Assembly: GCF_036323395.1 (NCBI RefSeq)
Contig: NZ_AP028907.1
Coordinates: 2,192,220 to 2,224,219 of the forward strand
Source: Pyrodictium abyssi
Lineage (GTDB): Archaea > Thermoproteota > Thermoprotei_A > Sulfolobales > Pyrodictiaceae
Length of the DNA stretch: 32,000 nucleotides
Direction: 5' to 3'
In this document: in pieces, positions 543-20,559 of the stretch
Numbering within the stretch: the first letter of the stretch is position 1
Layout: each line of letters begins with the position of its first letter
The notes under the pieces: generated by a model
What the model was told of the DNA's origin: nothing
Seen by the model: the letters and a program-made list of their open reading frames with translations, nothing else
Databases searched by the model: none
Made by a program: the position numbers and the translations under genes

Positions 543-735
543 TTAGCAATCGTCTTGGAGGCAGTTGTATAGCTTTTCACAGCTCGCCAATATTTCGAGC
601 AGCTGGTAGGCATTATGTATCGTTCTGGCTAGCATGCCTTGGCGCTCATTCTGCTAGCAAATGCTAGCATTGCGAGATTCGTCATTACATATTGGACACT
701 GGGTTACTGACTTGTTGTGATTCGCCTGGCTTGGG
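543..735 (-). pseudogene. C-terminal remnant of a second TGT-fold (DpdA-like) gene, with an in-frame TAG and no catalytic N-terminal part
   Basis: Minus-strand translation: ...KSVTQCPICNDESRNASIC*QNERQGMLARTIHNAYQLLEILASCEKLYNCLQDDC*. This aligns with the C-terminus of the intact gene at 5091..6068 (KCSCPVCRTEPEALAEWGRRGLLARTVHNAYQLLEVLEDPEKAAKLL). In-frame TAG at 654-656. The remnant abuts the vapC stop at 737. Confidence 0.6.
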
Positions 736-736
736 G

Positions 737-1216
737 CTAGATAATTCTCTCTAATTCTTTCTCCGGCACAGCTCTTAATAGTAGTGCTCTGGCTCCAATC
801 CTGGATGCATGCATACTCATAGCCTCGTCGTCTGTGACTAGTATGGCGTTTCTCCTCCAGGCTAGGGCTATTATGTAGGCGTCGAAGCCCGAGCTCCCGG
901 TCCTTATTGCTACCTCTAGTGCGTCTTCCCGGATCTCCTCCTCGAATACGATAGTGTAGTCTCTCGTGGATTTGAGGGACTCGACTATCTCTCTTGCCAG
1001 CTTCTCGCCCGCTAGCCTGGAGATTACGGCTCCCGTCTCGACTATAACGGGGTACGGTAGCAGAACCTCGTACTCCCTGTCTCTAAGCAGCCTTATGACC
1101 ATTCTAGCCTTGCGGTGTGTCTCCAGCTCCCTGCGGTAGATGTTGCTGGGGAGCCAGCGGCCTGGCCTCAGTACGGACTTCACGAGCACGCTACTATCTA
1201 GTACCACCTTTCCCAA
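737..1216 (-). CDS. vapC: PIN-domain ribonuclease toxin (VapC family)
   Basis: 159 aa with the PIN acidic residues in the expected order: VVLDSSVL, VIVETG, SGFDAYIIA, LVTDDE. It overlaps the upstream antitoxin gene. The start may instead be GTG at 1207. Confidence 0.85.
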   Translation of the reverse strand: MGKVVLDSSVLVKSVLRPGRWLPSNIYRRELETHRKARMVIRLLRDREYEVLLPYPVIVETGAVISRLAGEKLAREIVESLKSTRDYTIVFEEEIREDALEVAIRTGSSGFDAYIIALAWRRNAILVTDDEAMSMHASRIGARALLLRAVPEKELERII

Positions 1217-1401
1217 CGCATGCGGGCCTCCCGGAGCACCTTGTCAACATCCTCTTTGGCCTCCACGCTGACTTTCTCTATAAGTTCGGGAAATTCCTCG
1301 GGTAGGAGTTGTACTCTGAGTTCCTCGCCTTCCCTCAGCTCTAGGGGCTCGAGGGGCTTCAGCACGCCATTCTCGTAGCGGACCCGGATTACCTTGGACA
1401 T
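1198..1401 (-). CDS. DUF104/AF2212-like antitoxin (VapB partner)
   Basis: 67 aa starting MSKVIRVRYENGVLKPLEPLELREGEEL. Four small proteins in this window share this N-terminal signature. It lies immediately upstream of the PIN gene and overlaps it. Confidence 0.8.
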   Translation of the reverse strand: MSKVIRVRYENGVLKPLEPLELREGEELRVQLLPEEFPELIEKVSVEAKEDVDKVLREARMRWERWY

Positions 1402-1565: not shown

Positions 1566-3575
1566 CTATGCTGTTCGGTGGCCTATTGCTGCTGGTGCGC
1601 TTACTAGGCCTAGGTAGCCTCCGTGGACTGCGTAGCTGGAGAGTACTGCGGCGTAGTCGGCGTAGAATGGTAGTCGTTTGCGGTACTCGGTGGGGAGTTG
1701 TAGCTCTTCTGCGGTCTTGCGGTCTGTCCTCATGTATATCTTGGTGTTGGCTAGTGTGACGACGAGTGGGCTGAGGTCGCTCTCCCTGTGAGTGGATAGT
1801 AGCAGGGATATTCCGCGGCTCCTGCCTAGCCTTGCTAGGCGCTCTAGGGTTCTCCGGAGCATCTCTGCGTACTCGCCGCCGCCCCGTGGGAAGAAGAGGT
1901 GGGCTTCGTCGACGACTAGGAGTATCCGGCCGGGCCCGGTGCCTTTCTCTGCTGTTGATGCTAGGCTACGGAGGAGCTGGTAGCCTAGCAGCACTTTTAC
2001 CGCTGTGGGGTCGCTCTCCGACCTTGTGGCCGCGTAGCCTAGGTCGAGCATGAGCGTATTCACGCCGAGGCTTTCCATGGCGTTGGCTAGCTCGTTGTAG
2101 TCTATCCCTGGTGCCGCCGTGTTTATCACCCCGGTGTTTGCGAGGACTCGTAGCCGGCGGAGCAGGTGCTGTAGCGTCGCCTCGGGCGCGTAGCGCTTAG
2201 CCTCCTGTATCTTGCGCTCTATGCAGTAGGCGAGCTTGGCGGGGTGTGGAATGCGGCAGCCCAGTGAGTCTACTAGCGCTGGGAGGGCTTCGCGGGCGCG
2301 CTCTGTCATGTAGGGGTCTATCTCCGATAGCTGCCTGGGATCTCTCAGCTCTATGCCCCGAGGCGCGATATACACGCTCACTGTCTTCTCGCCGCCGCAC
2401 TCCACGGTGTACCAGGCCTCGTAGACGTATGGGGCGCCGGTGTCGTGGACCACGGGGCCGTCTACGAGCCTGCATTCTCCCCCGGCGCGGCTGTACATGG
2501 CTCTGGCTATCCCGGCCAGGGTCTCGGCGTACCGTTTTGCCTCGCTCTGGGGGCTGCAGTTGTCGCCGGGGCAGGGTATGACCACGAGGCCTCTTAGAGA
2601 GGGCCCCTTCACGGGCTCACCGGGCTCGGCCTCTACGCCGTATAGCCTGAGTATGCCCGCCCTCTTCGCGTCCACCAGGACCCGGGGGATGTAGCCCGGG
2701 AAGAGCCCGGCTACGTAGTCCTGGTTAGCGTCGAGCACTACTATGTGGACGTCTCCTCCCTGGGTCCTTGAGACGCTGTAGAGGATGTTCTTTACGAGGC
2801 TCGTCTTACCGCTCCCCGTGGTCCCGGTCACGAGGATGTGCTTCACCATCACGCTCCAGGGGAGGGACACGGGCACCGGTGAGCCGGCTGCGAGGTACGG
2901 CCGGTCCATTATCGCTAGTGCTCCTAGCGTGACATCGCCCCGTGGGGCTATGAGCGCTGAGAGGACCGCGGGGTGCGGTATCGCTACGGGGCTGCCCGGG
3001 TCTATGGGGAAGGATGGGGCTAGCTTCTCCGCCTCCGCGAGGATCCCGGCCAGCTCCTCTACGCTGCGTGCACGCGAGGCCTCCTCTAGCCCCTCCCGGC
3101 CCAGGTGGACTGCCAGCACGGGCCTAACATAGACCCGGATGCTGACAACGTTGCCCGCTACTGTTATCGGGCTGGGCCTGGCGAGCGGTATGCTCGTGAG
3201 AGGCTCCTGCGCACCGAGCACCCCCGGTATGCTGGAGCGCGTAGACTCGGCCACCTCGCCGAGGACCACGCTCGCCGTCTTTAGGTCTACTATGGCGTAG
3301 AAGTAGCCCGGCGAGAACACCTCAGGGTGGCTATGGGCTAGCCCTATCCAGGCCTCTGGCGCCAAATCCACGGGGACCAGGTCGGAGCCTATATCCCGGG
3401 ACGCCGAGACGCGGCCTACGAGCCAGCCGTACTGCTGGAGCGTCTCGACCCCAAGCTCCGCCGCGAGGAGCCTTGCAAGCCTCTCCGCCGCCTCCACCAT
3501 CTCCTCGTAGCGCTGGACTATGCGGCGGCGCTCGTTCACCAGCCTCTCGAAGCCCGCGCCCTCGCCGCCGGTCAC
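1566..3575 (-). CDS. herA: HerA-like FtsK/HerA-superfamily ATPase (DUF87)
   Basis: 669 aa. Walker A ILVTGTTGSGKTSLV, Walker B ILLVVDEAHLFFP, C-terminal LGRSRGISLLLSTHRESDL...ANTKIYMRTD. The GTG start overlaps the upstream stop (GTGA, 3572-3575). Confidence 0.85.
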   Translation of the reverse strand: MTGGEGAGFERLVNERRRIVQRYEEMVEAAERLARLLAAELGVETLQQYGWLVGRVSASRDIGSDLVPVDLAPEAWIGLAHSHPEVFSPGYFYAIVDLKTASVVLGEVAESTRSSIPGVLGAQEPLTSIPLARPSPITVAGNVVSIRVYVRPVLAVHLGREGLEEASRARSVEELAGILAEAEKLAPSFPIDPGSPVAIPHPAVLSALIAPRGDVTLGALAIMDRPYLAAGSPVPVSLPWSVMVKHILVTGTTGSGKTSLVKNILYSVSRTQGGDVHIVVLDANQDYVAGLFPGYIPRVLVDAKRAGILRLYGVEAEPGEPVKGPSLRGLVVIPCPGDNCSPQSEAKRYAETLAGIARAMYSRAGGECRLVDGPVVHDTGAPYVYEAWYTVECGGEKTVSVYIAPRGIELRDPRQLSEIDPYMTERAREALPALVDSLGCRIPHPAKLAYCIERKIQEAKRYAPEATLQHLLRRLRVLANTGVINTAAPGIDYNELANAMESLGVNTLMLDLGYAATRSESDPTAVKVLLGYQLLRSLASTAEKGTGPGRILLVVDEAHLFFPRGGGEYAEMLRRTLERLARLGRSRGISLLLSTHRESDLSPLVVTLANTKIYMRTDRKTAEELQLPTEYRKRLPFYADYAAVLSSYAVHGGYLGLVSAPAAIGHRTA

Positions 3576-4012
3576 CCTGCAGCCCCCTGCTCGGCCATAG
3601 ATAGGTGTGTCTCGTAGCTGAAGCCGACAGCGTGGCGTAGAGTGTTGTAGAGGAGCCTAGCACTATGTCTGGAGACTCTGCGCGCGGCATAGTCAGCCAG
3701 CCCTACCGGGATGGGGACCGGCGCGGCGTCGGGGTAGCCCATGAGCTCTACTATACCCGCCAGCAGCTCCAGGTCGGCGTCGAGCATAGCTCGGAACCTC
3801 AGCCTATCAAAGCCTACACCACCACTGCCGTCCACGGTGACGCCGCATCCCTTCACGGGGGCAGCCGGCATCTCTACCCGTAGGAGCACCCGGCCGTGGA
3901 GCGGCGACGGGACGTAGAGGTAGTAGCTCCTCTTGACCAGCACCTTCTGTGTAAACACTCTCCCGAAGCCCTGGAGCCCCAGCACATCAGCAACGCTGCG
4001 GCCGTCACGCAC
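3572..4012 (-). CDS. probable C-terminal portion of the NurA-like nuclease (listed as a separate 146 aa ORF)
   Basis: It is in the same frame as 4091..4990, separated only by TGA at 4091-4093 and 26 open codons. It contains PIPVGLADYAARRV, which resembles the C-terminal NurA motif. It is coupled to herA by a 4-nt overlap. Confidence 0.45.
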   Translation of the reverse strand: MRDGRSVADVLGLQGFGRVFTQKVLVKRSYYLYVPSPLHGRVLLRVEMPAAPVKGCGVTVDGSGGVGFDRLRFRAMLDADLELLAGIVELMGYPDAAPVPIPVGLADYAARRVSRHSARLLYNTLRHAVGFSYETHLSMAEQGAAG

Positions 4013-4090
4013 AGACGGCTGGTAGGCGTCCAGCCTGCTCCCGTGGCTGCCCCCGGGGCTTGTGAGTCCCCGTAGCGCTGGGCCCCATCC

Positions 4091-4990
4091 TCACCGTACT
4101 CGACCTCGGCAGGGTGGCTGCAGCGCTACGGGGACCTGGTAGCCGCCCACCCACCTCCGGGGCCCGTAGGCGCGGACAAGCATCTCGACGAGCTGGACAT
4201 CCCTCGAGGCATACAGCCCGCTTGCCTCCACCTTTCTCCTCCACTCTTTATCCGCCACTAGAGCCGAGGCGAGGAAGCGGCTCCTCTCGAGCCTCTTCAC
4301 GACTCCTACTAGCCTTACGCCGTGCTGCAGCGCCTCCTCTATCAGCTTGCCCCGGTCGAGCACATTGACGAGGTAGCTTAGAGCATAGTAGGCCTTCAGC
4401 ACAGTATAGGGCGAGAGGGCAGCGGGGCCGCCGCTCTGGGCTACCTGCACGAAGAGCCCCGGCGTGTTGAATACCGGGCCGTCTACGAGCACTAGGGAGC
4501 CGCCGGGGACCCAGCCTAGCAGCCATTCTAGCGCCCTATTCTCCAGCCACATCCTGTTCTCGTCGAGCATCGTCTGCCTATTGAAGCCATTCCAGTAGTC
4601 TAGCTCGGCTATAACCCGGCAGTAGGCGGGCCTGCTTCCCCCGCTGCAGCCGGGTAGAAGCGAGGCGTAGACGCGCGGGTCAACTAGCGGCGAGTCGGCT
4701 ACAAGGCCGCCGAACGACGCTGAGGCGGCGTAGCCTAGCCCTAGGCTGACCACGGGCTCCTGGCCTAGCTCGAGGCGGGGAAGGACACCGGTATCCGGGT
4801 AGGAGCCCACCAGTACTACACTGGATACGTGGGAGACGGCGACGCTGTAGACCCCTAGGAGGAGCGTTGTCGCTTCTAGCTGCTGGCTGCTGCCATCCAG
4901 CCCGTAGGCTTCTAGGCGGCCTGGCGGCTCGGGGAGCCGGGACCACACCACTCTGCCATGCGCCGCATCTTCGCGGTCCTCCTCCGTCAC
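4091..4990 (-). CDS. nurA: NurA-domain nuclease-like protein (N-terminal part, or a truncated form)
   Basis: 299 aa with NurA-like motifs AYGLDGSSQQLE, ENRMWLENRALEWLL and LVLVDGPVFNTPG. It lies upstream of herA on the same strand. GTG start. Confidence 0.65.
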   Translation of the reverse strand: MTEEDREDAAHGRVVWSRLPEPPGRLEAYGLDGSSQQLEATTLLLGVYSVAVSHVSSVVLVGSYPDTGVLPRLELGQEPVVSLGLGYAASASFGGLVADSPLVDPRVYASLLPGCSGGSRPAYCRVIAELDYWNGFNRQTMLDENRMWLENRALEWLLGWVPGGSLVLVDGPVFNTPGLFVQVAQSGGPAALSPYTVLKAYYALSYLVNVLDRGKLIEEALQHGVRLVGVVKRLERSRFLASALVADKEWRRKVEASGLYASRDVQLVEMLVRAYGPRRWVGGYQVPVALQPPCRGRVR

Positions 4991-5090
4991 GCCGGCGCCG
5001 CCTATGCTTGCTGGGCGTGGCTGGCTGGTAGAGGCTATGCGTAGCAGCTCGCCTGCGAGGCCCGCTATGTCCAGGAGTGTGGCAAGAGCT

Positions 5091-6068
5091 ATGACCGTGG
5101 TCTACTTCGTCCACAGCCTGACACAGTTCAGCCCAAGGCTCTGGCGCACACTAGGCCACCCATACGTGATGGTCTCCGCCGACGACGCGGCCCGCGACCC
5201 CCAGAGAGCCGTCCAGCTCCTCAGAGGCCTCAACGTCATAGTGGACAGCGGCGGCTACCGGCTCATAAGCCGCGGGAGGCTGCCCAGCCCCGAGGAGGTC
5301 CTAGAGGTACAGCGGACGCTAGCCGACGAGGTGGGCGCAGAGCCCGTCGCGCTCGACACCCCGGTCCCCCACCCCCTAAGGGCGGGGGACGCCGACTTCC
5401 GCGCCGCAAACGAGGCCACGGCGAGAAACGCCCGGCTATGGGCCCGGGTATTCGGGGACCACTTCATCTACCCCCTCCACGCCCATACACCGGGCCAGCT
5501 CCGGGACGCCCTCCAGAGGCTCCGCCAAGCCGCCCCCACGGTCGAGGCCGTAGGGCTCGGAAGCCTAGCACCCCTCGCGCGCCACCGGCCAGCCCAGGCG
5601 CTGAGGCTAATAGCGTACGCGCGGAGCATGATAGACAAGCGCATCCACGTCTTCGGGGCCGGTAACAGCCTCCTCGCAGCACTAGTGCTCCACAGGCTAG
5701 CAGACACGGCTGATACGAGTAGCCCGCTCCAGGACGCTCGCTACGGGCTAGCCCGGCACCCCAAGACACTAGCCATGACGCTCACAGCGCCCCGCCGCGC
5801 TCAGGGGAGACCGCGCGCAGAGCCACACGAGATAGCGGCGAAGTGCAGCTGCCCAGTCTGCAGGACCGAGCCAGAAGCTCTGGCAGAATGGGGCCGTAGA
5901 GGCCTCCTAGCCAGGACCGTTCACAACGCCTACCAGCTACTAGAAGTGCTAGAGGACCCCGAGAAGGCGGCAAAGCTGCTAGCGAGGCGGCCACAGCTAG
6001 CAGCTGCGCTGGCAGAGACCCGGCCTGGGAGAGGCTCCGTGGCTGCAGGGCTGCCCGGCAAGGCTTGA
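5091..6068 (+). CDS. TGT-fold transglycosylase, short DpdA-like form (no arcTGT N-terminal motif and no PUA domain)
   Basis: IVDSGGYRLIS (TGT DSGGfQ motif, 5244-5258), PVALDTP, IHVFGAGNSL...DTADTSSP...ARYG, and a Zn motif CSCPVC (5844-5861) followed by ARTVHNAYQLLEVL. The ORF opens at 5004; ATG at 5091 (MTVVYFVHS) is the more plausible start. Divergent from the nurA/herA operon. Confidence 0.75.
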   Translation: MTVVYFVHSLTQFSPRLWRTLGHPYVMVSADDAARDPQRAVQLLRGLNVIVDSGGYRLISRGRLPSPEEVLEVQRTLADEVGAEPVALDTPVPHPLRAGDADFRAANEATARNARLWARVFGDHFIYPLHAHTPGQLRDALQRLRQAAPTVEAVGLGSLAPLARHRPAQALRLIAYARSMIDKRIHVFGAGNSLLAALVLHRLADTADTSSPLQDARYGLARHPKTLAMTLTAPRRAQGRPRAEPHEIAAKCSCPVCRTEPEALAEWGRRGLLARTVHNAYQLLEVLEDPEKAAKLLARRPQLAAALAETRPGRGSVAAGLPGKA

Positions 6069-6520
6069 TAGTCTCCTCCCCGGCTTCCGTGGAGAGGGGC
6101 AGGCCTACTGTGCACGGGGAGCAGCTACGCTGCCTCGCCGGCGTGGCGTCGAGGTGGCGTCTCCGCTACCTGGTGGTCTTCGGGTCCCAGGCTAGGGGCT
6201 ACGCGGGGCCTCACAGCGACTACGACGTGGCCGTCAAGGCCGGCAGGAGGCTAGCCTTCGTGGAGCGTGGCCTCCTCTACACGGAGCTAGAGAGGTGTGT
6301 AGACGGGCGGCTCGACCTACTGTTCATAGACGACTGGGACCCCATAGCCGTGTGGGAGGCGCTAGCACACGGGAGGCTAGTCTACCACTGCGGGGCCCAG
6401 TGCCTCCGCGAATACTACGAGGACCTCGCCCGAGCCATAGACGAGGTAGCAGACCTAGAACCCATCCTGGTGCTCTTCCGGAGGGAGATGCAGCGTGCCC
6501 TCGCCGGGCCTAGTAGCTAG
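6065..6520 (+). CDS. minimal nucleotidyltransferase (MNT) antitoxin of an HEPN-MNT pair
   Basis: LVVFGSQARGYAGPHSDYDVAV matches the GSxxRG...DxD nucleotidyltransferase signature. The start is uncertain: TTG at 6065 overlaps the TGT-like stop, and GTG at 6110 is an in-frame alternative. Confidence 0.8.
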   Translation: MIVSSPASVERGRPTVHGEQLRCLAGVASRWRLRYLVVFGSQARGYAGPHSDYDVAVKAGRRLAFVERGLLYTELERCVDGRLDLLFIDDWDPIAVWEALAHGRLVYHCGAQCLREYYEDLARAIDEVADLEPILVLFRREMQRALAGPSS

Positions 6521-6920
6521 GGTGACGCGGGCCCGGAGGAGCCTCGAGAGGCTTAGGAGGCTGGCCTCGATGCCCTGGGAGGAGTACAGCGTAGACGAGG
6601 ACGCGCAGGCGCTAGCGGAGAGGCACCTCCACATACTCCTGGAGTCCATCCTCGACCTCGCAGCGTTCATCGCCGCCCGCCGCGGCCTGGCATGGAGCCC
6701 GACCTACCGCGGTGTAGTCGAGGCCCTCGTGGCCAGCGGCCTCGTGCCAGAGGAGCTAAGGAGCCTCGCCCTCTCAGCAGCCGGCATGAGGAACATACTG
6801 GTCCACGGCTACGCGGAGGTACGGCACGACATAATCTACGAAGTACTCCGACACGACCTAGACCGGCTAGAAAGACTCCTCGACACGCTGTGGAGGGAAG
6901 CAGAGAACCTAGACCCCTAG
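6495..6920 (+). CDS. HEPN-domain (DUF86) toxin of an HEPN-MNT pair
   Basis: 141 aa with an Rx4-6H motif (MRNILVHGY). Helical. Overlaps the MNT gene end. An alternative in-frame GTG start is at 6522. Confidence 0.8.
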   Translation: MPSPGLVARVTRARRSLERLRRLASMPWEEYSVDEDAQALAERHLHILLESILDLAAFIAARRGLAWSPTYRGVVEALVASGLVPEELRSLALSAAGMRNILVHGYAEVRHDIIYEVLRHDLDRLERLLDTLWREAENLDP

Positions 6921-6966
6921 CACCAACCACTCCGGCACCACATATACGCCTCCCCTAGGGCCGTGT

Positions 6967-7302
6967 ATGCCGGGGCGTTGGGCTGTGGCCTACGCTGGTG
7001 CTGCGGCTGCCGCGGCTGGGGCCTCGGCGTCTGCCCAGGCCAAGGCGTTCACCTACGGCTTCCTCGTAGTGGAGCCCAGCGAGTTTCTGAAGCTACTGGG
7101 CAGGAGCAAGGAGCCGGTGGTGGTTGTTGTCCGCCGGCGCGTCGGGATACTGAACCGGAGGGACGAGCTCGTCTACATAGCCGGGTACGGCGACTTCACG
7201 GTGCTTACCCGGTCCCCAGAGCCACTACCCCTACCCCCAGGGACCGAGGTCATAGAGGCCCGGAAGCTAGTGCTCCCGCCCGCAGTCCTGACAGCACTCT
7301 AG
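6967..7302 (+). CDS. hypothetical small protein with an Ala-rich signal-like N-terminus
   Basis: The 111 aa frame (…AFTYGFLVVEPSEFLKLLGRSKEPVVVVVRRRVGILNRRDELVYIAGYGDFTVL…) looks protein-like. The overlapping 6963..7337 frame is Arg/Gly-rich. No family recognised. Confidence 0.35.
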   Translation: MPGRWAVAYAGAAAAAAGASASAQAKAFTYGFLVVEPSEFLKLLGRSKEPVVVVVRRRVGILNRRDELVYIAGYGDFTVLTRSPEPLPLPPGTEVIEARKLVLPPAVLTAL

Positions 7303-7439
7303 CCCGGAGACTCGTCGTCCCAGCCGGGGTCAGTTAGACGCCCGCGGATATGCCTGGTCTCGCGTGCTGGGGGTGCTGCCTCTCTACATTGCCATGCAGT
7401 GTAGGGCCCCGTGGGCGCGCCGCCCTAGGCCATGGTCTG

Positions 7440-8036
7440 CTAGTCTCTGTGGTGGCGTGACATCTCTCTTAGTTTCTCGTGGAGCCTCTGCAGAGCCTCC
7501 TGGTGCTCTCTGGTCCACTTGCCCTGGCTCTCTAGCCTCGGCTTTACCTGCTCCTCGACTATCTCGGCTAGCTTGCCTAGGATGGATGCGATGTCCCTTG
7601 CAGCCTCTCCGCGGTCTGGGTACTTGCTCAGCTCCCCGGAGGGGTCTGGGCCGTGGTACTGGTAGTCGTGGAGCTCGAGCGCTGTGCTGGTGAGGTGCGT
7701 GTAGTATGGCACCCCAGCGGCCTCCTCTACGAGCCTTGCTAGGGGCTTGAGCCGGCTGCTAGGCACCCGAGGTACCCCGACCTCCTCTAGCCATTTCCTC
7801 TCCTTCTCGCCTAACATCTCTACTATCCTGTCCCTCTCTAGGGCTAGCAGCGCTGCTGTTAGCGCCCGCCACGCCTGGAACGCCTTACCCGCAGCGTTCC
7901 TGGTGTAGCCCTCCTCGAGGAATCGTAGCGCTATCTGAGCTTCTAGGAGAGCTTCCAGTGCCCGGGCAGAGGCGTAGCCCACTAGGTCTCGCCGGGGCTT
8001 GGGCAGGGGCTGCTCGAGTAGCGCTGCGGGGTTCAA
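7440..8036 (-). CDS. PaREP1-family (HEPN-like helical) protein
   Basis: 198 aa. FLEEGYTRNAAGKAFQAWRALTAALLALE and LELHDYQYHGPDP resemble the archaeal PaREP1 family as I recall it. TTG start. Confidence 0.5.
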   Translation of the reverse strand: MNPAALLEQPLPKPRRDLVGYASARALEALLEAQIALRFLEEGYTRNAAGKAFQAWRALTAALLALERDRIVEMLGEKERKWLEEVGVPRVPSSRLKPLARLVEEAAGVPYYTHLTSTALELHDYQYHGPDPSGELSKYPDRGEAARDIASILGKLAEIVEEQVKPRLESQGKWTREHQEALQRLHEKLREMSRHHRD

Positions 8037-8103
8037 AGCCGCTGTACCCAGAGGGATGGGTAGAGGGCTGCCTGGCTCCTATAGTGTTGCCCCGCTAGAA
8101 CAC

Positions 8104-9087
8104 ATGTACGTGGCGGTATCCAGGGGCTGGTTGTGGCGCTGTATTTATGTCTGGGCTAGTGTTTTGTCGCATTCTTTCCCGCCGGCTCCGCTGACGGGGG
8201 CTGCTGCCTTGGCCTTGGAGGCTGTGTTCTATGTCGCGCGGGTGGTGTTCCGGCCGCTGCGCCGGGTGGCGTTGACGGCGTGGAGCGGGGTGTACGCGGG
8301 CAGGGCTGTCTATGAGAGCCTCAACCGGGCCGGGATAGTGCTCGACCGGGGTGGATTGTTCCGGGTCTCCCCGGTCTACCCCCTGGGGTCCCGTGCCCCG
8401 GTGGGCGGGTTCCTGGCTCCAGGCGAGCGGTACTGGTTCCGGGCCGTGTTCTGGGGCGCTCCCGGCTCCGCTAGCGGGCAGCAGCTGGCTCGGGGCCTTA
8501 TGGCGGGCCTTGGGCTGTGGACCCGGGAGCTTGTGGTGGAGGAGCTGAGCCTGGAGGAGAGGAGGGCCCGTCTGCCGGACCCCGGCGCGGGGGAGGGCGA
8601 GGCGGATGGCGAGCCGGTGGCGGCGCTGGTGCGGGTGCGGCACGGGCCCACATTCTACCGGTTCCACGGCGCTGTGGTCTCGTATCCTAGCCCCTGGAGG
8701 CTCGTGGCGAGCATCGCGCGGCGGCTGAGCCTGGCCACGGGGATCGACTACCGGCCACTGGCGCGCCGGCTGCAGCCGTGCCTAGAGCTGGCTGTGGACC
8801 GGACGAGGCGGGTGAGGATACGGCTCAGCCACGGTGCGGAGCCGCCGGTGTTCACCGGCGAGGCTCTCTACCACGCTGTGTGCCCCAGGGGCCTGGCCTC
8901 GGCGCTCCAGAGGCTCCTCGAGGCCGGCGTCTACACGGGTGCTGGGGCGAGCCCCGGCCTCGGCCTAGGCGAGATACACGCCGTGGACCTGGGGCCTCCG
9001 CGGCACCGGGCCCCGCCGGCCCTCGAGCCCTGGACCGAGGAGCAGGAGGAGCCCAGCGGCGCCGAAAAGGAGGCCCGGCCAGCATAG
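8104..9087 (+). CDS. cas6: Cas6-like RAMP protein (orphan)
   Basis: The C-terminal glycine-rich loop GAGASPGLGLG (8938-8970) fits the Cas6 pattern GhGxxxxxGhG exactly. It is preceded by FTGEALYHAV...LQRLLEAGVYTG and by PSPWRLVASIARRLS, which resembles Cas6 second-RRM features. The ORF opens at 7999 but would then overlap the divergent gene; ATG at 8104 is preferred. Confidence 0.55.
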   Translation: MYVAVSRGWLWRCIYVWASVLSHSFPPAPLTGAAALALEAVFYVARVVFRPLRRVALTAWSGVYAGRAVYESLNRAGIVLDRGGLFRVSPVYPLGSRAPVGGFLAPGERYWFRAVFWGAPGSASGQQLARGLMAGLGLWTRELVVEELSLEERRARLPDPGAGEGEADGEPVAALVRVRHGPTFYRFHGAVVSYPSPWRLVASIARRLSLATGIDYRPLARRLQPCLELAVDRTRRVRIRLSHGAEPPVFTGEALYHAVCPRGLASALQRLLEAGVYTGAGASPGLGLGEIHAVDLGPPRHRAPPALEPWTEEQEEPSGAEKEARPA

Positions 9088-9372
9088 GTATCTGCTTGGC
9101 CGGGGCTTGTTCTGGCGCTTTGGCGCAGGGTCTATCCCAGCCTGGTAGGCTTTGGGGCGCAGGCGTAGCTCCGCGTCCTGGACACCAGGCTCTAGAGCGG
9201 CGCCATGGCCTGGGGCGGTGCTGCTAGGACCAGGGTCTCCGGCCCTCTCTCGGGCAGGCGGGCGAGCCTCAAGGGAGAAGCCGGGGGACACCCATATAGA
9301 GCACCCTGGCGGCACAGCATTTGATGGTACAGCTCCTTCCCGGTCCATCTCAGCTCGTGTAGTAGGGGCGGG

Positions 9373-9648
9373 GTGCTGCTGGTGACTGCTGTTGCCGTGC
9401 TAGACGCTTTGACCAGGGAGGCTAGGCTGTTGAGGGCTAAGCTAAGAGTCTACGATGCTAGGATACGCGAGCTAGAGGAGAAGCACAGAATGAGCTCTGA
9501 CGAGTTCCTCGCCGGGTTCGAGAGAGGAGAGCTGGGGGACGACGAGGACTACTTCCTCTGGTGGAGCTACCTGAGGGCCAGGGCAACGATAGCTGAGAGG
9601 CTAAAGGAGCTTGAGAAGGAGATACGGAAGCTTCAGGGACTACGCTAG
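9373..9648 (+). CDS. small helical protein, putative antitoxin partner of the DUF6516/TumE-like gene
   Basis: 91 aa, coiled-coil-like, with SSDEFLAGFERGELGDDEDYFLWWSYLRA. It overlaps the start of the downstream gene. Confidence 0.5.
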   Translation: MLLVTAVAVLDALTREARLLRAKLRVYDARIRELEEKHRMSSDEFLAGFERGELGDDEDYFLWWSYLRARATIAERLKELEKEIRKLQGLR

Positions 9649-10009
9649 CTGGTTCCACGACGTTATCAGCTCGTTTGGAGAGGCCATTGTAGACTATAGC
9701 ATATCCATCGAGGAGGTTACTCCCTCGGAGGGGCTCATCCGGGGAGTCATAGTGTTCCTCGACGGCTCTAGGCTCCGTTTCCTCGAGTACGTCTCTATCA
9801 CCGGAGGCAACGCGGCCAGGCTCAAGTATAGGTATCACTACGAGGACCCGGATGGCAGGCTGGTCTTCCGCTACGATAATGCGCCGCACCACCCCGAGGT
9901 GGAGACGTTCCCGCACCACAAGCATCTGGGCGACGGCAGGGTAGTCGCATCCATTGCTCCCTCGATAAGGAGCGTCCTGGAGGAGATACTAGACCTCATA
10001 CCGGTCTAG
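9611..10009 (+). CDS. DUF6516 / TumE-like putative toxin
   Basis: 132 aa with LKYRYHYEDPDGRLVFRYDNAPHHPEVETFPHHKH, the hallmark His-rich motif of the family as I recall it. The start is uncertain because of a 38-nt overlap with the upstream gene. Confidence 0.65.
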   Translation: MRRRYGSFRDYASWFHDVISSFGEAIVDYSISIEEVTPSEGLIRGVIVFLDGSRLRFLEYVSITGGNAARLKYRYHYEDPDGRLVFRYDNAPHHPEVETFPHHKHLGDGRVVASIAPSIRSVLEEILDLIPV

Positions 10010-10072
10010 CGCGGCGCTGGAGACACGGCACTGTGTATTGCCATCCGCGTTCTCTACGCCATGGAGCTGGGT

Positions 10073-11530
10073 TTAGTGTTGTGTTTCTTTCCGTAGTGGT
10101 AGTAGTGCTAGGAGGACTGCTGTGGAGACGGCTAGTGTCCAGAAGGGCGCGGGTAGGCCTAGTAGTAGCGGCTTGGCGAGTGCCTTCACCCCGTAGGCTA
10201 TCGCTGCCGCGGTTGCTAGGGCGGCGCCGGAGGCCATCGAGGCGAGTGCTGCCTGCCAGCGGCCCCGTGCTAGCTCGGGCTTCGCCCACGCGAGGATGGT
10301 GGCGGGCGCGGTGGAGAGGAGTATGGCGGAGGACAGCACGGATAGCGCTACTATGAAGCCTATCCTGGCTAGTGCTAGGGCGCTAGCGGCGGCTATGAGC
10401 ACTGCTACCACGGCTGCTCCGAGGAGTATCTCTGCTCGCTCGCTGGGCCTCCGGGCCCTCGGCGCGTAGAGGTCTCTTACGACGCTGCTCGCCACGCTGA
10501 GCGCTATGGAGTCCGCTGTGGAGACGGCTGCCGCTACTATGCTGGTGAACACTATCGCCGAGAGCAGCGGCGGCGCGTGGGCTAGGAGTGTCGGCGTCAC
10601 GGCGTCTCGGCGCTCTATGGGGGCTAGTAGGCCGGCTTCGCTGAGGCTCCGGGCAAGCAGCCCCGTGAGGGTGACTGCTACTGTGTACGCGAGCCCGAAC
10701 ACGGCGAACCAGACCACCATGCCCCTGAGCGCCTTTGGGCTCCTGGGCATGAAGAGCCGCTGGACCGCCTGGGGGTTCGTGGCGGCGAAGAACATCCATG
10801 GTAGCGTGAAGCCCAGGAATACGCTGGGCTGCCAGAACTCGGTTAGGCCTAGCAGCCCCTTCTCGCCCAGCAGCCTGGTGGCGCCGTCGAAGCCGATGCT
10901 GCCGGCTACCCAGCCTGCTAGCCACGCTAGGAGGAGGGACGCCGAGGCTATCATCCATAGGCCCTGGAGGGCGTCGGTGACGGCTACGCTCCATACACCG
11001 GCTACGAGCGTCCAGGCGATCATCACCGCCGCGCCGAGGGCCACGCCGTAGAGGTAGGCGGCGTCGCTGCCCGCTAGGCCCGCCACGGCCTCGGCTATGC
11101 CCTTGACCTGGGCGCTCATGTAGGGCACGAGGGCGTAGAGGTACACCACCGCTACGGCGGCTGCTAGCTTCTTGGAGCCGTAGAGGTCGCCGAGCATCTC
11201 GGCCGGGCTTATCCACCGCCTCTCCCGGGCCAGGGCCCATACCCTTGGGGCGAAGAGGGAGAGGAGGAGCATCGTGCCCACGAAGTAGACGAGCTCGAAG
11301 CCCAGCGCCCCGGTGCCGGTCGAGTATGCGAACCCTACGAGCCCGACTATCATGAAGGCGCTGTACGTGGTAGCCGCGTAAGTCATCGCTGCCAGGAAGG
11401 TGCCTAGCCGGTAGCCCGCGACGTAGTAGTCCTGGCTACTCCTGACACCGGCCCGCCGCGCAGCCACGGCTAGCAGTGTGCCGACCAGCATGTAGAGCGC
11501 GAGCACGGCTAGGCCAAGGGACACCGCCAT
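10073..11530 (-). CDS. sodium:solute symporter family (SSF) transporter
   Basis: Multi-TM protein. The N-terminus MAVSLGLAVLALYMLVGTLLAVAARRAGVRSSQDYYVAGYRLG is typical of SSF. The listed ORF extends to 11872, but its first 114 codons are Arg/Gly-rich junk that overlaps the small upstream gene. ATG at 11530 is used here. Confidence 0.85.
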   Translation of the reverse strand: MAVSLGLAVLALYMLVGTLLAVAARRAGVRSSQDYYVAGYRLGTFLAAMTYAATTYSAFMIVGLVGFAYSTGTGALGFELVYFVGTMLLLSLFAPRVWALARERRWISPAEMLGDLYGSKKLAAAVAVVYLYALVPYMSAQVKGIAEAVAGLAGSDAAYLYGVALGAAVMIAWTLVAGVWSVAVTDALQGLWMIASASLLLAWLAGWVAGSIGFDGATRLLGEKGLLGLTEFWQPSVFLGFTLPWMFFAATNPQAVQRLFMPRSPKALRGMVVWFAVFGLAYTVAVTLTGLLARSLSEAGLLAPIERRDAVTPTLLAHAPPLLSAIVFTSIVAAAVSTADSIALSVASSVVRDLYAPRARRPSERAEILLGAAVVAVLIAAASALALARIGFIVALSVLSSAILLSTAPATILAWAKPELARGRWQAALASMASGAALATAAAIAYGVKALAKPLLLGLPAPFWTLAVSTAVLLALLPLRKETQH

Positions 11531-11562
11531 CCCGTCGGCCACCCCTCCCCTGCTCCCGGGGG

Positions 11563-11772
11563 CTACTGCGCGGGGGCCTCCCCCGCGGTGCGTGCTGCTA
11601 GCCTGGCAAGGGCGTAGGCCGAGTAGGCCGCCGCCACTGCTACCCAGTAGACGTAGAGGCTCCAGTCGCGCGCATCCCCTAGCACCGTGTAGGGCACCAG
11701 GTACATCGCTGCGAGGGCTGCTAGGCCAGCGGCGGCGTCGAGTAGCCAGCCCCCGGGCATGTCCCCATCCAC
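11563..11772 (-). CDS. small two-TM membrane protein, DUF3311-like accessory subunit of the SSF transporter
   Basis: 69 aa, hydrophobic, immediately upstream of the symporter on the same strand. This position is typical of DUF3311-type small subunits. Confidence 0.5.
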   Translation of the reverse strand: MDGDMPGGWLLDAAAGLAALAAMYLVPYTVLGDARDWSLYVYWVAVAAAYSAYALARLAARTAGEAPAQ

Positions 11773-11920
11773 CGCGAACAGTTGTTCGGTAAACTAAACC
11801 CCTAAAAACTCGCCGGCGCCACCATCCACGAGGGCCCCAGGCAGGGGGAACCCTTAAGACCAAGGATGCCACCTCTACCTAGTGCCCTCGGTGCACAGCC
11901 ACAAGCGCTAGGCTAGAACC

Positions 11921-12949
11921 ATGGGGGCCGGTAGTAGGGGCTCGCTGAGGCATAGGCTGCTAGGACTAGTCGCAGCCGAGCCCGGGCTCAGCGTATCGGA
12001 GATAGCCGCCAGGCTAGGCGCGTCCAAGAGCACGGTATCGGTGCTCGTCCGGAGGCTCGAGGCCGAGGGGCTCCTACGCCGGGTCCGCCGGGGCTCCATG
12101 GTCCTCGTCTACCCCGCCCAGGGGGCAGCCGGCGGCAGCAGCCCAGCCGGGGCGGAGGCTCGGCGGCTCCGGCTCGGCATAGTGAGGGCGGCCGAGTACC
12201 CCTTCATAGCCCACCTCGCCAAGGCGCTTAGGCACCGCGGCGTAGAGCTAGAGGTAGTGGTCTACGACAACGGGCTAGACGCGTCCTTCGACCTGGTATC
12301 GGGCAGGCTAGACCTGGCGCTCGCGCCGCTGCCAACCCAGGTCCTCTTCTACGCGCTCACGGGGCGGCTCCGCATAATAGGCGGCGGCGCCTACGGCGGA
12401 GCCTACGTCCTCGAGTCCCGGGCCGCCAGGGGCCACACCGCCTACACGACGCGCGCGTCCACGATGGAGCTCTGCCTCAACACCAGCGGCGTAGTGGACT
12501 ACGCCGAGGCCGTGGTCTACGCCGGGGCCGGGCACGGTATAGAGGAGGCCCTGGCCAGGGGCCGGGCACGGTACGCTGCGCTCTGGGAGCCCTACGCCAG
12601 CCAGGCCCTCTCCAGGGGAGACGTCAGAGTAGTCGCGGCCTGCAGCGACCTAGGTGTGGAGAACTGCTGCACACTAGCAGCCAACCCCGACAGGCTAGGC
12701 CCGGAGCAGCGGAGCCTCATAGCCAGGCTGTACAGCGAAGCGCTCGCCGAGTACCAGCGGAGGCCAGACGCCATGCTAGAGTGGTACTCGGGCCTCACCG
12801 GTATACCCGTGGACACGCTACGCCGGGTACAGGCGAGCTACAGGATAGCCCACGAGGTGAACCCGGCCACGGCCGAGAGGATCCTGGAGCGCGCGGGCAT
12901 GAGGATGCCACGGCCAGCCCTCGTCAGGGAAGCAGTAGAGCAGCCATAA
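11921..12949 (+). CDS. transcriptional regulator: N-terminal MarR-like winged helix plus a periplasmic-binding-protein-like (NMT1/SsuA-type) sensor domain
   Basis: wHTH segment LSVSEIAARLGASKSTVSVLVRRLEAEGLLRRV, followed by LRLGIVRAAEYPFIAHLAKALRHRGVELEVVVYDNGLDASFDLVSGRLDLAL. Divergent from the symporter operon. Confidence 0.65.
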   Translation: MGAGSRGSLRHRLLGLVAAEPGLSVSEIAARLGASKSTVSVLVRRLEAEGLLRRVRRGSMVLVYPAQGAAGGSSPAGAEARRLRLGIVRAAEYPFIAHLAKALRHRGVELEVVVYDNGLDASFDLVSGRLDLALAPLPTQVLFYALTGRLRIIGGGAYGGAYVLESRAARGHTAYTTRASTMELCLNTSGVVDYAEAVVYAGAGHGIEEALARGRARYAALWEPYASQALSRGDVRVVAACSDLGVENCCTLAANPDRLGPEQRSLIARLYSEALAEYQRRPDAMLEWYSGLTGIPVDTLRRVQASYRIAHEVNPATAERILERAGMRMPRPALVREAVEQP

Positions 12950-16993: not shown

Positions 16994-17020
16994 CCATGAT
17001 AGGGCGTTGACTCTTCGGAG

Positions 17021-17056
17021 CCGGAGGTCCCCCGGGTTTAAATCCCGGCGGGCCCG
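17021..17056 (+). repeat. tRNA 3'-half-like fragment (T-arm plus acceptor 3' strand); possible att remnant
   Basis: ccggg(17032-36) tttaaat cccgg(17044-48) forms a perfect T-arm, followed by cgggccc and g (acceptor 3' strand and discriminator). No matching 5' acceptor strand or D-arm lies upstream. The T-loop reads TTT rather than TTC. Confidence 0.5.
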
Positions 17057-18078
17057 TTACACCTCACAGCTTAAGGTACGCCGGGTGCTGATGGCCTGCA
17101 TCGTCTAGAAGGCCCTCGTATCCCGGCCTCGCTGGCACGTAGCTCGCAGAAACGGCTCTGACCTAACCTACTCTGGCTCGACCAGGGCTTCCTCTCCAGG
17201 AGCTTCTACAGCACAAGCCTTACTCATAGACTAGAGTAGAGGAGGCTGGAGAGTAACACCGTTAGCAAGAATCGCTGTGAGAGCCTCAACCATGGCTAGC
17301 CCTAAGCAGCCCGCTAGGCTTCCCTTCCAGGCCCAAGGTACACCGCGTCCACGCTGAGGAACTCCCCGAGGAACCCGCCTAGGCCCTCTGCAAGACCATC
17401 AACAAACCTCTTTCACGGTACTAGCGTGCCCGGCGATCCAGGGACTGTTGGAGTAGCACCGGAGCGCCGGTTGCCGTTCATCATGGATGACGGCTAAGCC
17501 TCGCTTGCCGCCCTCTCCCTCAAACAGTACTAGGTTCAACCCCTCTAGGTTTAGTAGCGTCTGCATAGCCGCACACCCTTAACCACCGCTCTCCTCCTTA
17601 CCCTGCTCTGGAGTTCTTGCCTGCTCCCGGTATTTCAGTGAGCCTATGCAACTGCTCATCGTTTAGCCTCACGTAGCCTCTCTGCTCATGTTGATGCCAG
17701 GGTTGATACTGGGATGCTGCTGTGGCTATAGCCTGGTTGGAGGAGCGTGACCGCTGGAGGCTATTAGGCTCCGTATCCCGGTGGACGCTGTTAGGGAGTT
17801 GTTCGGCTATAGGGGGGTTAGCTTGTCTAGGAGTATTGACGGGTGCTGGACAAGTATTCAGAGAAAGTAACTAAGACCTAAAATATTTAGGATAAAGCTC
17901 TTTTAATGGTACTTGGCGTGAGGTCAGCCTTACATGCCTCATTCACGAGGTTGACAACAATTAGATAGTCGCATGCTAGTGATCAGAACGCTAACCTAAG
18001 CACCAAACACTAACGGCAACAACGAAGATAGAGGTCCATACAGTAACAGTTACCGGGACACCCGCATCAACCCATACA

Positions 18079-18315
18079 GTGCCGAGAAACACCTACAACT
18101 ACGAAATTCTAGAGTACTTCCCTATCGATGAAGGACGCTACGCTCTATACATGTTCGTGGACACCATGAATAACATGAGTGCCACCTACCAAATAACTAT
18201 ACAACAACGAGCCTACACCAGGGCAGGCCTAATCTTCCTGATGACTCTCGCTAAGATAAACGGGTCAGGAAGACCGCTGAACTCAGCATTGTACGGGAGA
18301 CTCAACTCGCCTTGA
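18079..18315 (+). CDS. hypothetical small protein
   Basis: 78 aa ORF with a GTG start in an AT-rich segment. No recognisable motif. Confidence 0.25.
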   Translation: MPRNTYNYEILEYFPIDEGRYALYMFVDTMNNMSATYQITIQQRAYTRAGLIFLMTLAKINGSGRPLNSALYGRLNSP

Positions 18316-18602
18316 AGCACTAAGACACCATGTACACCGACTACACCTAGTGTTCTTAGGCCTGTTATCCAGCTAGAGTCCTTGAAGGTCTAGCAAGTAC
18401 GTAGTTGGCAGCCAACCCTATGGAGTCCTCAAGGCATCCTTGTTCGAAGCTGTAGCTGAGTAGGATATCGACGCGAGGAGTTCTAGAACTCTAGGGTCTT
18501 TGGGATTAGGCAAAGCACAACATACTGCCCCTCCCCCTTTAAGCTCTGCGGTAGGCTATTAGCCTGGAGAGCTACCTAAAGCAGTCTTGGAGGCGCTCTG
18601 TT

Positions 18603-18911
18603 TTGTGCTTCTGGACTCCAGAGATAACAGTTGTGAAAAGGGATGGTAGTAAGGAGCCCTTCATGTACGAGAAGGTCGTCGTGTCCTGTCTAAAAGCTGG
18701 CGCGACGCTGGATGCTGCCCGGAGAATCGCTACAAAGGTGCTTGCTAGGCTTATCTCTGAGAACCGGAAGGAGGTTACTGCAAAGGAACTCACCCGCTGG
18801 ATACTAGAGCTGCTTCGCGAGGAGAATGAGGAGTGGTACCGTAACTGGATAGTCTTCGACAGAGCTGTCAAGAGGAGGAGGACCGAGGAGGAGCTAAAGT
18901 CTCCCCAGTAG
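18603..18911 (+). CDS. stand-alone ATP-cone domain protein
   Basis: ITVVKRDGSKEPFMYEKVVVSCLKAGATLDAARRIATKVLARLISENRKEVTAKELTRWILELL matches the ATP-cone pattern (vKRDGr.epFd.eKi...). The start is uncertain: TTG at 18603 or a nearby GTG. Confidence 0.65.
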   Translation: MCFWTPEITVVKRDGSKEPFMYEKVVVSCLKAGATLDAARRIATKVLARLISENRKEVTAKELTRWILELLREENEEWYRNWIVFDRAVKRRRTEEELKSPQ

Positions 18912-19152
18912 AGCCCATGTTTTTACTCTCCTCCCTCAACAATATCCGTAGGCAATCGATTATAGCCTCCCTGGACAAGGGCATGCCTATCCTAGACCCC
19001 CAACGGCCCTGAGGTATGAATGCTCTTACCGGAGCTTCATCGCAACGGATATCCATGGAGGAGAGTTGCTCCTCGACAACATAGCATAGGGTCCGCCTTT
19101 TGGCTACTAGCTCTAGGCCAGCATTAGCATCTGTTCGTCTTCACCCATTCAA

Positions 19153-19989
19153 TTATATTAACCATGTCGTAGATCTTTTCTCGCAGTATTCTACTAGCAG
19201 GTCGAAGAGTCGCTTGTACCGCTCGGCTTCTCGCTGGAAGTAGAGGACGTTTTCCAGCCTGGCATTGGCCCTGTCTACGAGCCCTATTATCTTTGAGAGA
19301 TAGCCGTCTGGAGCCGAGACGTCTATCACTAGTTCCTCGATATCATGCTCTAGTTCTACGCTGTTTAGCCTTATAAGCCCGTGTAGCAGCTCGTGGATGG
19401 CTAGGTCAAGTACGTGGCTCTCCCCATGGAGATCGTTGACGTAGACTGCGGTGACGGGGTTCTCATCGTCGAAGTAGAGCATAGTCCCGAAGGACATGCC
19501 GGGCATGGGGTTGAAGCCGTAGACTACGTAGAGCTTCGTAAAGAACCGTTTAAACCCAAATACCTTCTCTATATAGCTGATTATCTTGTCTTTCTTTCTC
19601 CGGTATAGATTGCTAACTCTTTCGCCTATATCAGCAAAGATTGCCCTAACTTCGCCCCATCTATGTATGCTGATGGCCTTTAACTCGTTTAGGATAATGT
19701 CGACTTCTCTGTCGGAGGTTGATGCTATTCCCGCCAGCTCTGTGAACAGCTTGTTCCACAAGTTGCTTCTCTCGATACAGTATGATACGTGGAGTAGCGG
19801 CCCAAACAGCTGGCGTAGAGAACATGGGGTATCGACCGGACGGGCGAATATGGGATGTGAATCAAATCGTAAATAGAGGCGGCCAGGTACGCCTCCTTGC
19901 TGACGACGGGTATGAGCTCCATATTCCTGGTTCCTCTCTACTACACGCTGCCTCCGGCAACGTCCTTTGTTCTTATAAAATGCTTTCAC
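19153..19989 (-). CDS. putative Zn-metallopeptidase-like protein (HExxH)
   Basis: LDLAIHELLHGLIRL contains HExxH. YVVYGFNPMPGMSFGTMLYFDDE and the C-terminal DGYLSKIIGLV parallel 21603..22588. The N-terminal roughly 40 codons of the listed ORF look like junk. A more protein-like start (MELIPVVSKEAYLAASIYDL, 19922) lies in another frame, so the start is uncertain or there may be a frameshift. Confidence 0.5.
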   Translation of the reverse strand: MKAFYKNKGRCRRQRVVERNQEYGAHTRRQQGGVPGRLYLRFDSHPIFARPVDTPCSLRQLFGPLLHVSYCIERSNLWNKLFTELAGIASTSDREVDIILNELKAISIHRWGEVRAIFADIGERVSNLYRRKKDKIISYIEKVFGFKRFFTKLYVVYGFNPMPGMSFGTMLYFDDENPVTAVYVNDLHGESHVLDLAIHELLHGLIRLNSVELEHDIEELVIDVSAPDGYLSKIIGLVDRANARLENVLYFQREAERYKRLFDLLVEYCEKRSTTWLI

Positions 19990-20090
19990 AGCGTACTAGT
20001 ACCCCACCATGCGGTAGTGTAGTGCTAGGAAGCGTGCGGCGCCAGAGCCCCGGAGCTGGTTGCTGTGAATTGTGCTCGTTGGGGCTGGCT

Positions 20091-20538: not shown

Positions 20539-20559
20539 ACCAAGCCACCGCCCCTGCTA

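Follow-up and report, generated by a model that had tools for sequence, protein, structure and literature searches.

A conserved HerA-NurA-TGT gene trio in Pyrodictiaceae, often located in CRISPR-Cas loci and decayed in Pyrodictium abyssi, with a possible role in DNA modification

This study concerns a 32-kb stretch of the Pyrodictium abyssi genome (NZ_AP028907.1, positions 2,192,220 to 2,224,219; referred to here as the window), and in particular three adjoining genes in its left part. They encode an ATPase of the HerA family, a NurA nuclease, and a short protein with the fold of the tRNA-guanine transglycosylases (TGT), which we call the TGT-like protein. An earlier note on this DNA had given the genes these identities, and profile searches and motifs confirm all three. 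The features of the trio are as follows.

1566-3575, minus strand: HerA ATPase/translocase matching the Cas type, 669 aa, open reading frame (ORF) intact (Pfam DUF87, HerA_C, PADLOC)
3572-5092, minus strand: NurA nuclease, reading as a pseudogene, homologous frame from 5092 to 3572 (Pfam NurA and alignment to P. delaneyi NurA)
4066-4135: inversion cassette within NurA, with an inverted 40-bp core at 4081-4120
5070/5071: junction of a 70-bp deletion (three-way DNA alignment)
5091-6068, plus strand: predicted short single-domain TGT-fold transglycosylase, 325 aa, ORF intact

The association of the three genes is conserved. Ten homologous loci had enough flanking DNA to be evaluated, namely the window, P. 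delaneyi, Pyrofollis japonicus, three metagenome-assembled genomes and four further metagenomic or read-assembly contigs, and in all ten of them HerA and NurA adjoin the TGT-like gene. The earlier note had proposed that a lack of conservation here would count against its reading, and the adjacency is kept throughout. Three gene orders are found: divergent in most loci, NurA>HerA>TGT>Cas6 in one (L004), and convergent, with the TGT-like gene facing the HerA-NurA pair, in two (L009 and L015). Across nine loci, the identities of the three proteins to those of the window rise and fall together (Spearman 0.93-0.98). At the level of sequence comparison, the HerA, NurA and TGT-like genes are shown to be inherited as one unit. 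The TGT-like family comprises 18-21 clusters among 5.8 billion proteins (18 at E<=1e-3), mostly from Pyrodictiaceae and vent metagenomes, and the HerA subfamily is of about the same size, with 22 clusters in the same set. Contig scans gave one confirmed locus from genome contigs and one from metagenome contigs.

The HerA protein matches Pfam DUF87 (38.7 bits) and HerA_C, and its translation, read by eye, contains a Walker A motif GTTGSGKT and a Walker B motif VVDEAH. It shares 100% identity with a Pyrodictium abyssi protein and 87% with P. delaneyi Pyrde_0302. Its match to the PADLOC model PDLC01055 ('HerA, Type III coevolved') is strong, at 107.6 bits (E 1.7e-31), whereas the NCBIfam equivalogs for repair HerA give only 29-41 bits against cut-offs of 800-970. 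Pfam scans of the ORFs in the window found neither Mre11 nor Rad50. The view that this is not the canonical archaeal repair pair is borne out, and by its sequence the HerA of the window matches the known CRISPR-coevolved Cas-HerA type and not repair HerA.

Pairs of Cas-HerA and Cas-NurA are known from the CRISPR systems of Crenarchaeota (Vestergaard 2014, PMC3973734; Shah 2018, PMC6546367, clusters 57/58), and were first noted in Pyrobaculum, according to the same two papers. The pair described here resembles them in having adjoining, translationally coupled NurA and HerA genes and, for most loci, in lying in or beside crenarchaeal type I and type III cassettes, and both are unlike the repair pair, which is linked to Mre11 and Rad50. 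It differs in its constant TGT-like partner, since neither paper mentions a transglycosylase or TGT, and in that two of the trio loci are without any cas genes. No paper was found in the literature that combines HerA, NurA, a transglycosylase and CRISPR, or that describes a TGT-like CRISPR accessory. The nuclease pair thus appears to belong to the known Cas-HerA/Cas-NurA class, while the NurA-HerA-TGT trio was not found described.

The setting of the trio is in most cases a CRISPR-Cas locus. In eight of the ten trio loci, the three genes are found inside or next to cassettes or arrays of type I-A or type III CRISPR-Cas, and the genes adjoining the trio across loci include Cas5, Cas7, Csa5, Cas3 and Cas3-HD; Cas1, Csa1, Cas2 and Cas4; and Cas10, Cmr3 and CARF genes, as well as arrays. 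In P. delaneyi the trio has the Cas5...Cas3'/Cas3''(HD) genes on one side and, on the other, a 54-repeat array followed by Cas6. In Pyrofollis, arrays together with Cas3 and Cas1/Csa1 flank the trio, and further loci carry Cas4-Cas2-Cas1-Csa1, Cas5-Cas7-Csa5-Cas4 or Cas3-Cas5-Cas7-Csa5. In L015 a type III-B Cas10-Cmr3-CARF operon runs into the TGT-like gene in the same direction with a gap of 5 nt, and in L004 the TGT-like gene lies between HerA and Cas6.

Around the trio, the window itself contains the following features.

558-698, minus strand: relic of a second TGT-like gene (tblastn)
737-1401, minus strand: VapC (PIN) and an AF2212-like antitoxin (Pfam PIN 43.4 bits, AF2212-like 59.6 bits)
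6065-6920, plus strand: MNT (Pol-beta nucleotidyltransferase) and HepT pair (Pfam Polbeta 41.8 bits, HepT-like 77.2 bits)
8209-9087, plus strand: Cas6 endoribonuclease (Pfam CRISPR_Cas6 29.2 bits)

The Cas6 of the window is 79% identical to the Cas6 that follows the 54-repeat array in P. delaneyi, and 96% identical to that of L006, a metagenomic relative with 97% identity to the window. The array of P. delaneyi occupies positions 9007 to ~12700 of its locus (L001), and the MNT/HepT pair is found at the same position in the window, where the place of the array is taken by toxin-antitoxin (TA) modules and a PaREP1 gene. A repeat search, including one with the P. delaneyi repeat allowing 3 mismatches, found no CRISPR array in the 32-kb window, and tblastn with Cas1, Csa1 and Cas3, together with Pfam scans of the remaining ORFs, found no cas gene in it other than Cas6. 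The earlier note had described the locus as a defence island framed by TA modules. The VapC/AF2212-like and MNT/HepT pairs are indeed present, but the relevant frame is CRISPR-Cas; both the Cas6 gene and the CRISPR-Cas setting of the close homologues had been overlooked.

The start of the TGT-like gene at position 5091 is the same as in 17 homologues. The translation contains the motifs DSGG, HVFGAGN...DTADTSSP and CSCPVC...HN, as had been pointed out earlier. In 18 sequences with 50-97% identity, the invariant residues are DSGG 52-55, D89, H130, GLGS 155-158, D208, C252/C254/C257 and H278-N279, so that all three catalytic or substrate-binding aspartates (D52, D89, D208), the glycines of the substrate pocket and the Cys3-His zinc site are retained. 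An AlphaFold model of the protein was confident (pLDDT 89.4, pTM 0.88). Foldseek matched it with probability 1.0 to the archaeal TGT (arcTGT) 1iq8, at a TMq of 0.72, and to bacterial and eukaryotic TGTs at 0.62-0.72, with weaker matches to phage TGT/DpdA-like proteins in a library of viral structures. On this model, the protein has the fold of the TGT superfamily, a (beta/alpha)8 barrel with a zinc subdomain. A comparison of structures had also been suggested as a way of assigning the protein to DpdA or to arcTGT. It supports the fold but does not separate these two, because Foldseek settles the fold only and the top 50 PDB matches are mostly to the Z. mobilis TGT.

Within this fold, the catalytic barrel is closest to that of arcTGT (TgtA, PDB 1IQ8), with which it shares the motifs DSG, LDxP, HxFGxG, D-S/T and CxCxxC...HN; the aligned residues in arcTGT are DSG, LDIP, FDSAS and CSCPVC...HN. 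It nevertheless falls short of the threshold of each curated model. It scores 25.9 bits with Pfam TGT (PF01702), just under the gathering threshold (GA) of 26.3, which several family members pass, among them P0019 with 28.5 and P0023 with 43.5 bits. With the general TGT model TIGR00449 it reaches 18 bits against a cut-off of 47.6, and with the arcTGT equivalog TIGR00432 26.8 bits against a cut-off of 350, whereas the canonical arcTGTs P0157 and P0158 score 510-525 bits with the latter. The protein lacks the ~45 N-terminal residues of arcTGT and all of its C-terminal tRNA-binding domains (C1-C3/PUA); there is no Pfam match to PUA or DUF5591, and the chain ends ~45 residues past the HN motif. 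The earlier view that this is not a canonical arcTGT, having no PUA or other C-terminal domains, thus holds.

There is also a difference in the active site. The invariant His130 lies where arcTGT and bacterial TGT carry the Gln that reads the base (Gln169 in arcTGT). An exhaustive search for short TGT-like proteins, of which there are 394 representatives, showed His at the base-recognition position in 84 of 101, and the canonical arcTGTs in the same alignment retain Gln. We infer that His130 corresponds to His181 of DpdA, the DNA-modifying transglycosylase, whose residues were taken from PMC10164549. The distribution of the TGT-like protein, unlike that of arcTGT, is patchy.

The strongest functional clue comes from a sister clade. 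Four close relatives, and the gene in L011, carry a C-terminal DUF6884 domain with CxxxK and LSAxxG motifs. Two of the fusion genes adjoin HerA-NurA:

L009, 2246-3673: TGT+DUF6884 fusion gene, sister clade
L011, 9995-11440: TGT+DUF6884 fusion gene, sister clade

DUF6884 is a YaaA-like DNA-binding fold (PMC11701544), and DpdC, a component of the bacterial Dpd system, is a DUF328/YaaA protein (PMC12839542). The fusion protein P0019 matches PADLOC DpdC (9.5e-6) and the fusion protein P0020 matches Pfam YaaA (1.8e-4). DpdA-like chemistry for the TGT-like family gains support from these fusions. Their loci have housekeeping neighbours only, with no cas genes within 8-10 kb, and this suggests that the trio is self-contained but often hosted by CRISPR loci.

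More distant short TGT-like proteins have other neighbours, and HerA-NurA is absent beside those in L017 and L018, so that the linkage to HerA-NurA is specific to the close family. In L018 (1198-7909) the gene for a TGT-like protein with 26% identity (P0178) precedes those for a 170-aa protein and an MBL-fold protein, after which comes a 1263-aa DEAD/Helicase_C/MZB helicase in convergent orientation; we take this context to resemble Dpd gene clusters. In L017 (7399-8939) a TGT-like protein with 32% identity (P0025) comes after eight co-directional genes without Pfam matches, and is overlapped by an upstream 201-aa gene encoding DUF5591, which is the domain between the TGT core and PUA in arcTGT and ArcS. 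One further relative, P0151 (717 aa, from a read-assembly contig), has a TGT-like core and a long C-terminal extension with a weak Csa3/cas_HTH match (E 0.0024), and may be another connection between TGT and CRISPR.

In contrast to the HerA and TGT-like ORFs, which are still open in the window, the NurA gene is damaged. The piece 4094-4990 matches Pfam NurA with 29.8 bits, and the match to PADLOC PDLC01056 is weak (19.5 bits, E 1.2e-4). By tblastn, the 524-aa NurA of P. delaneyi aligns in one frame from 5092 to 3578 with 72% identity and one stop, with a second match on the opposite strand at 4042-4131. Translation of 4990-3572 accordingly meets an in-frame TGA at 4091-4093. Perfect 15-bp inverted repeats at 4066-4080 and 4121-4135 flank a 40-bp core (4081-4120), and the plus strand of the core encodes GPILTVLDLGRVAAALR, the counterpart of GPILTVLNLGGVAASIR in P. 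delaneyi NurA. When the core is flipped in silico, a single uninterrupted NurA ORF of 506 codons results; the TGA is therefore present because the core has been inverted. A programmed ON/OFF switch for NurA was considered, and was judged less likely than a template-switch mutation because P. delaneyi lacks the inverted repeats and because NurA has two further lesions.

The first of these is at the start of the gene. Homology to NurA extends upstream past 4990 up to 5092, and there is no ATG, GTG or TTG in the NurA frame between the upstream stop and the GTG at 4990. In a DNA alignment, 70 bp that are present in both L006 and P. delaneyi are missing from the window at 5070/5071. The lost segment, which is flanked by direct repeats of 10 bp, C(T/C)AGGAGTGT, carries the TTG start of NurA as well as all of the intergenic region between the divergent genes, with a TATA-like ATATAAGG in it. 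Near 4924/4925, between two LPEP motifs, 17 codons of the P. delaneyi NurA (DLVGQRLNSLIHPLPEP) are also missing, and this is the third repeat-associated lesion of the gene. Three independent repeat-mediated events in one gene argue for real decay, and on this evidence the NurA of the window is a pseudogene. With NurA hit by an inversion and deletions, and with the shared promoter region lost, the module in this genome is probably inactive.

The coupled NurA-HerA operon proposed earlier stands as regards the HerA ORF and the GTGA at 3575-3572, in which the NurA stop overlaps the HerA start, but NurA 4990-3572 is not one ORF. The spacer of about 100 nt that had been described between NurA and the TGT-like gene was an artefact of taking the GTG at 4990 as the start. 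The N-terminal 31 residues of NurA (4994-5083, minus strand) are identical to P. delaneyi at 30 of 31 positions, compared to 72% for the whole protein, which suggests that the N-terminus is under dual constraint from overlap with the upstream region of the divergent gene.

The second TGT-like sequence, at 558-698, is a relic of the C-terminal zinc/HN region (CPxC...ARTIHNAYQLLE) with an internal stop, and is located downstream of HerA and VapBC in DNA of low GC content; the VapC/AF2212-like pair is situated between it and HerA. It reads CPICNDES...*...MLARTIHNAYQLLEIL, aligns to residues 254-297 of the family with 47% identity (E 1.5e-7 over all loci), and is matched in tblastn by 16 of 18 family members. 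It may be a trace of an earlier arrangement in which NurA>HerA>TGT were co-directional, or of the turnover of genes.

The window as a whole is rich in TA genes: a TumE toxin, preceded by its partner, and two further PIN-domain proteins are also found (9373-10009, 26905-27342 and 28441-28839). Three segments (17000-21000, 23000-25000 and 30000-32000) have a GC content of 38-55%, compared to ~65% elsewhere, and few long ORFs. The ORFs tested in these segments gave no Pfam matches, and the segments may be foreign or degraded DNA.

Two described systems bear on the function of the trio. The bacterial Dpd system carries out 7-deazaguanine restriction-modification, with DpdA, DpdB and DpdC as well as DpdD-K (PMC10164549). 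Like DpdA, the TGT-like protein is a short TGT-fold enzyme without tRNA-binding domains, with three Asp and the zinc residues, and with His in place of Gln. Both are paired with an ATPase and a nuclease, and both systems include a YaaA/DUF328-like domain of the DpdC type, although here in the sister clade only. The differences are that the window protein fails the DpdA equivalog, that there is no DpdB, that HerA-NurA takes the place of the DpdD-K helicase/nuclease set, and that the host of the trio is archaeal, the module lies inside CRISPR loci and DNA modification is a proposal. The BREX-related capture system (BRC), reported in 2026 (PMC12839542), has HerA/FtsK, GNAT and TGT components, and is similar in combining a HerA/FtsK-family translocase with a TGT homologue for which a role in marking self DNA has been proposed. 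Its defining components are however PglZ, DUF6079 (BrxC-like), DUF4007 and a STAND NTPase, and it has no NurA and no link to CRISPR. Neither the Pfam scans of the window ORFs nor the annotations of the homologous loci showed PglZ, DUF6079, STAND NTPase or DUF4007.

On balance, we lean towards the reading that the trio couples a 7-deazaguanine DNA modification enzyme to a HerA-NurA translocase-nuclease, that it has often been recruited by CRISPR-Cas, and that the copy in the window has decayed. The TGT-like enzyme would replace guanine in DNA by the 7-deazaguanine preQ0, which archaea already produce for archaeosine, and in the fused forms the DUF6884 domain would process preQ0 further. HerA-NurA would load on DNA and degrade DNA that lacks the mark. 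As no DpdB-like ATPase is present, HerA may also provide the ATPase role that DpdB has for bacterial DpdA, and so power the base exchange. In CRISPR loci, the module would serve interference or spacer acquisition, either backing it up or feeding it. A more detailed version can be put forward for the Pyrodictiaceae, in which the DpdA-like enzyme marks host DNA, the Cas-HerA-NurA pair shreds only unmarked invader DNA, thereby both restricting it and giving prespacers to Csa1-Cas1-Cas2-Cas4, and HerA drives the exchange; the module would then be a modification-based self/non-self filter for adaptation. Put together in this form, it is a speculative scheme, and we regard it as unlikely to be correct in full.

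A number of observations weigh against DNA modification by the trio. The TGT-like protein has no match at E<=0.1 to DpdA in either the NCBIfam model (NF041059, cut-off 200 bits) or PADLOC, although 65 of 101 wider relatives match the DpdA model weakly (best 1.3e-26). The DpdA-type assignment made earlier gains support as to the chemistry, from the DUF6884 fusions and the change of Gln to His, but not as to family membership, and the protein would be DpdA-like in its working while standing outside the DpdA family as defined by the curated model. By sequence it is nearer to arcTGT, since the sole PDB match of the family profile is the P. horikoshii arcTGT (E 2.7e-7). Local hidden Markov model searches found no stand-alone DpdC or DUF6884 in the window or in any of the non-fusion loci, and no ParB-like DpdB ATPase was found in the window or homologous loci. 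That the substrate is DNA rather than RNA is suggested by domain loss, fusions and neighbours. The known clusters number only ~20 and are mostly metagenomic, and the lesions in NurA could in principle be assembly errors.

The remaining point of this kind concerns Hyperthermus butylicus (L020), where a type I-A locus contains HerA-NurA of the same subfamily but no TGT-like gene within 10 kb, implying that the nuclease pair is not strictly dependent on TGT. In this locus (4754-11923), Csa3, a split NurA and HerA lie beside Cas1, Csa1, Cas2 and Cas4. The NurA is split into ORFs of 355 aa and 152 aa at a position close to that in the window, and a 660-aa PAPS-reductase/4Fe-4S protein is located divergently upstream, next to fragments of Csa3.

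Other explanations have to be weighed against DNA modification. The trio could be purely an accessory of CRISPR-Cas, with the TGT-like protein acting on CRISPR RNA (crRNA), pre-crRNA or tRNA-like RNA, HerA-NurA processing DNA for adaptation or interference, and the genomic DNA unmodified. The frequent position in or beside cas cassettes (8/10 loci) and the gene placement in L015 and L004 fit this, and the nearest solved relative by sequence is a tRNA enzyme; but the two loci with DUF6884 fusions stand apart from cas genes, the fused domain is YaaA/DpdC-like and of a DNA-binding family (PMC11701544), and the RNA-binding C-terminal domains of arcTGT are all absent, which leaves an RNA substrate decidedly improbable. 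If instead the protein were a housekeeping or auxiliary tRNA-guanine transglycosylase, that is a truncated paralogue of arcTGT, its adjacency to HerA-NurA would be functionally meaningless. This would agree with the UniRef name of the P. delaneyi homologue ('tRNA-guanine(15) transglycosylase') and with arcTGT being the best NCBIfam and PDB match. It is hard to reconcile with a score of 26.8 against 350 bits, with the missing PUA and C1-C3 domains and the Gln to His change, and with an adjacency kept in 10/10 loci although the genes have been rearranged into three different orders. Archaeosine occurs in the tRNA of nearly all archaea (PMC5485725), whereas the TGT-like family has ~20 clusters worldwide, none of which surfaced in searches for Hyperthermus butylicus. 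The patchy distribution and strict linkage together weaken the case for a tRNA paralogue, and we give it very little credence.

The TGT-like protein might alternatively recognise 7-deazaguanine-carrying invader DNA, or become covalently trapped on it, and pass this DNA to HerA-NurA, as an anti-modification arm supporting CRISPR. Archaeal rod-shaped viruses and bicaudaviruses do encode TGT/DpdA-like proteins (PMC6884629), a protein of Sulfolobales Beppu rod-shaped virus is among the structural matches, and the position beside CRISPR interference genes would be suitable. However, fusion to a DpdC-like domain suits the making and not the sensing of a modification, and viral contigs yielded no relatives of the TGT-like protein. 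It also counts against such sensing that 7-deazaguanine is a poor leaving group in TGT chemistry, making base exchange effectively one-way, and we think it quite unlikely. A catalytically inert TGT-fold protein, which would merely bind DNA or act as an adaptor within the HerA-NurA machine, has precedents in non-catalytic TGT-fold partners such as QTRT2 and ArcS alpha, and 34 of the 101 wider relatives also match the ArcS model. There is no ArcS match for the window protein, though, and the catalytic Asps, pocket glycines and four zinc ligands are invariant in the 18 sequences, so that an inert adaptor is highly doubtful.

The related genomes offer natural controls for the proposed DNA modification: the trio is intact in P. 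delaneyi and Pyrofollis japonicus and broken in P. abyssi, while in H. butylicus HerA-NurA occurs with no TGT gene. If the TGT-like enzyme does modify DNA, this would be, as far as we know, the first cellular system in Archaea that modifies DNA with 7-deazaguanine, and HerA-NurA would be a new effector arm for 7-deazaguanine systems. The Cas-HerA and Cas-NurA proteins, which have long been known but not explained, would then gain a definite partner, together with a role in self/non-self discrimination by CRISPR that can be tested.

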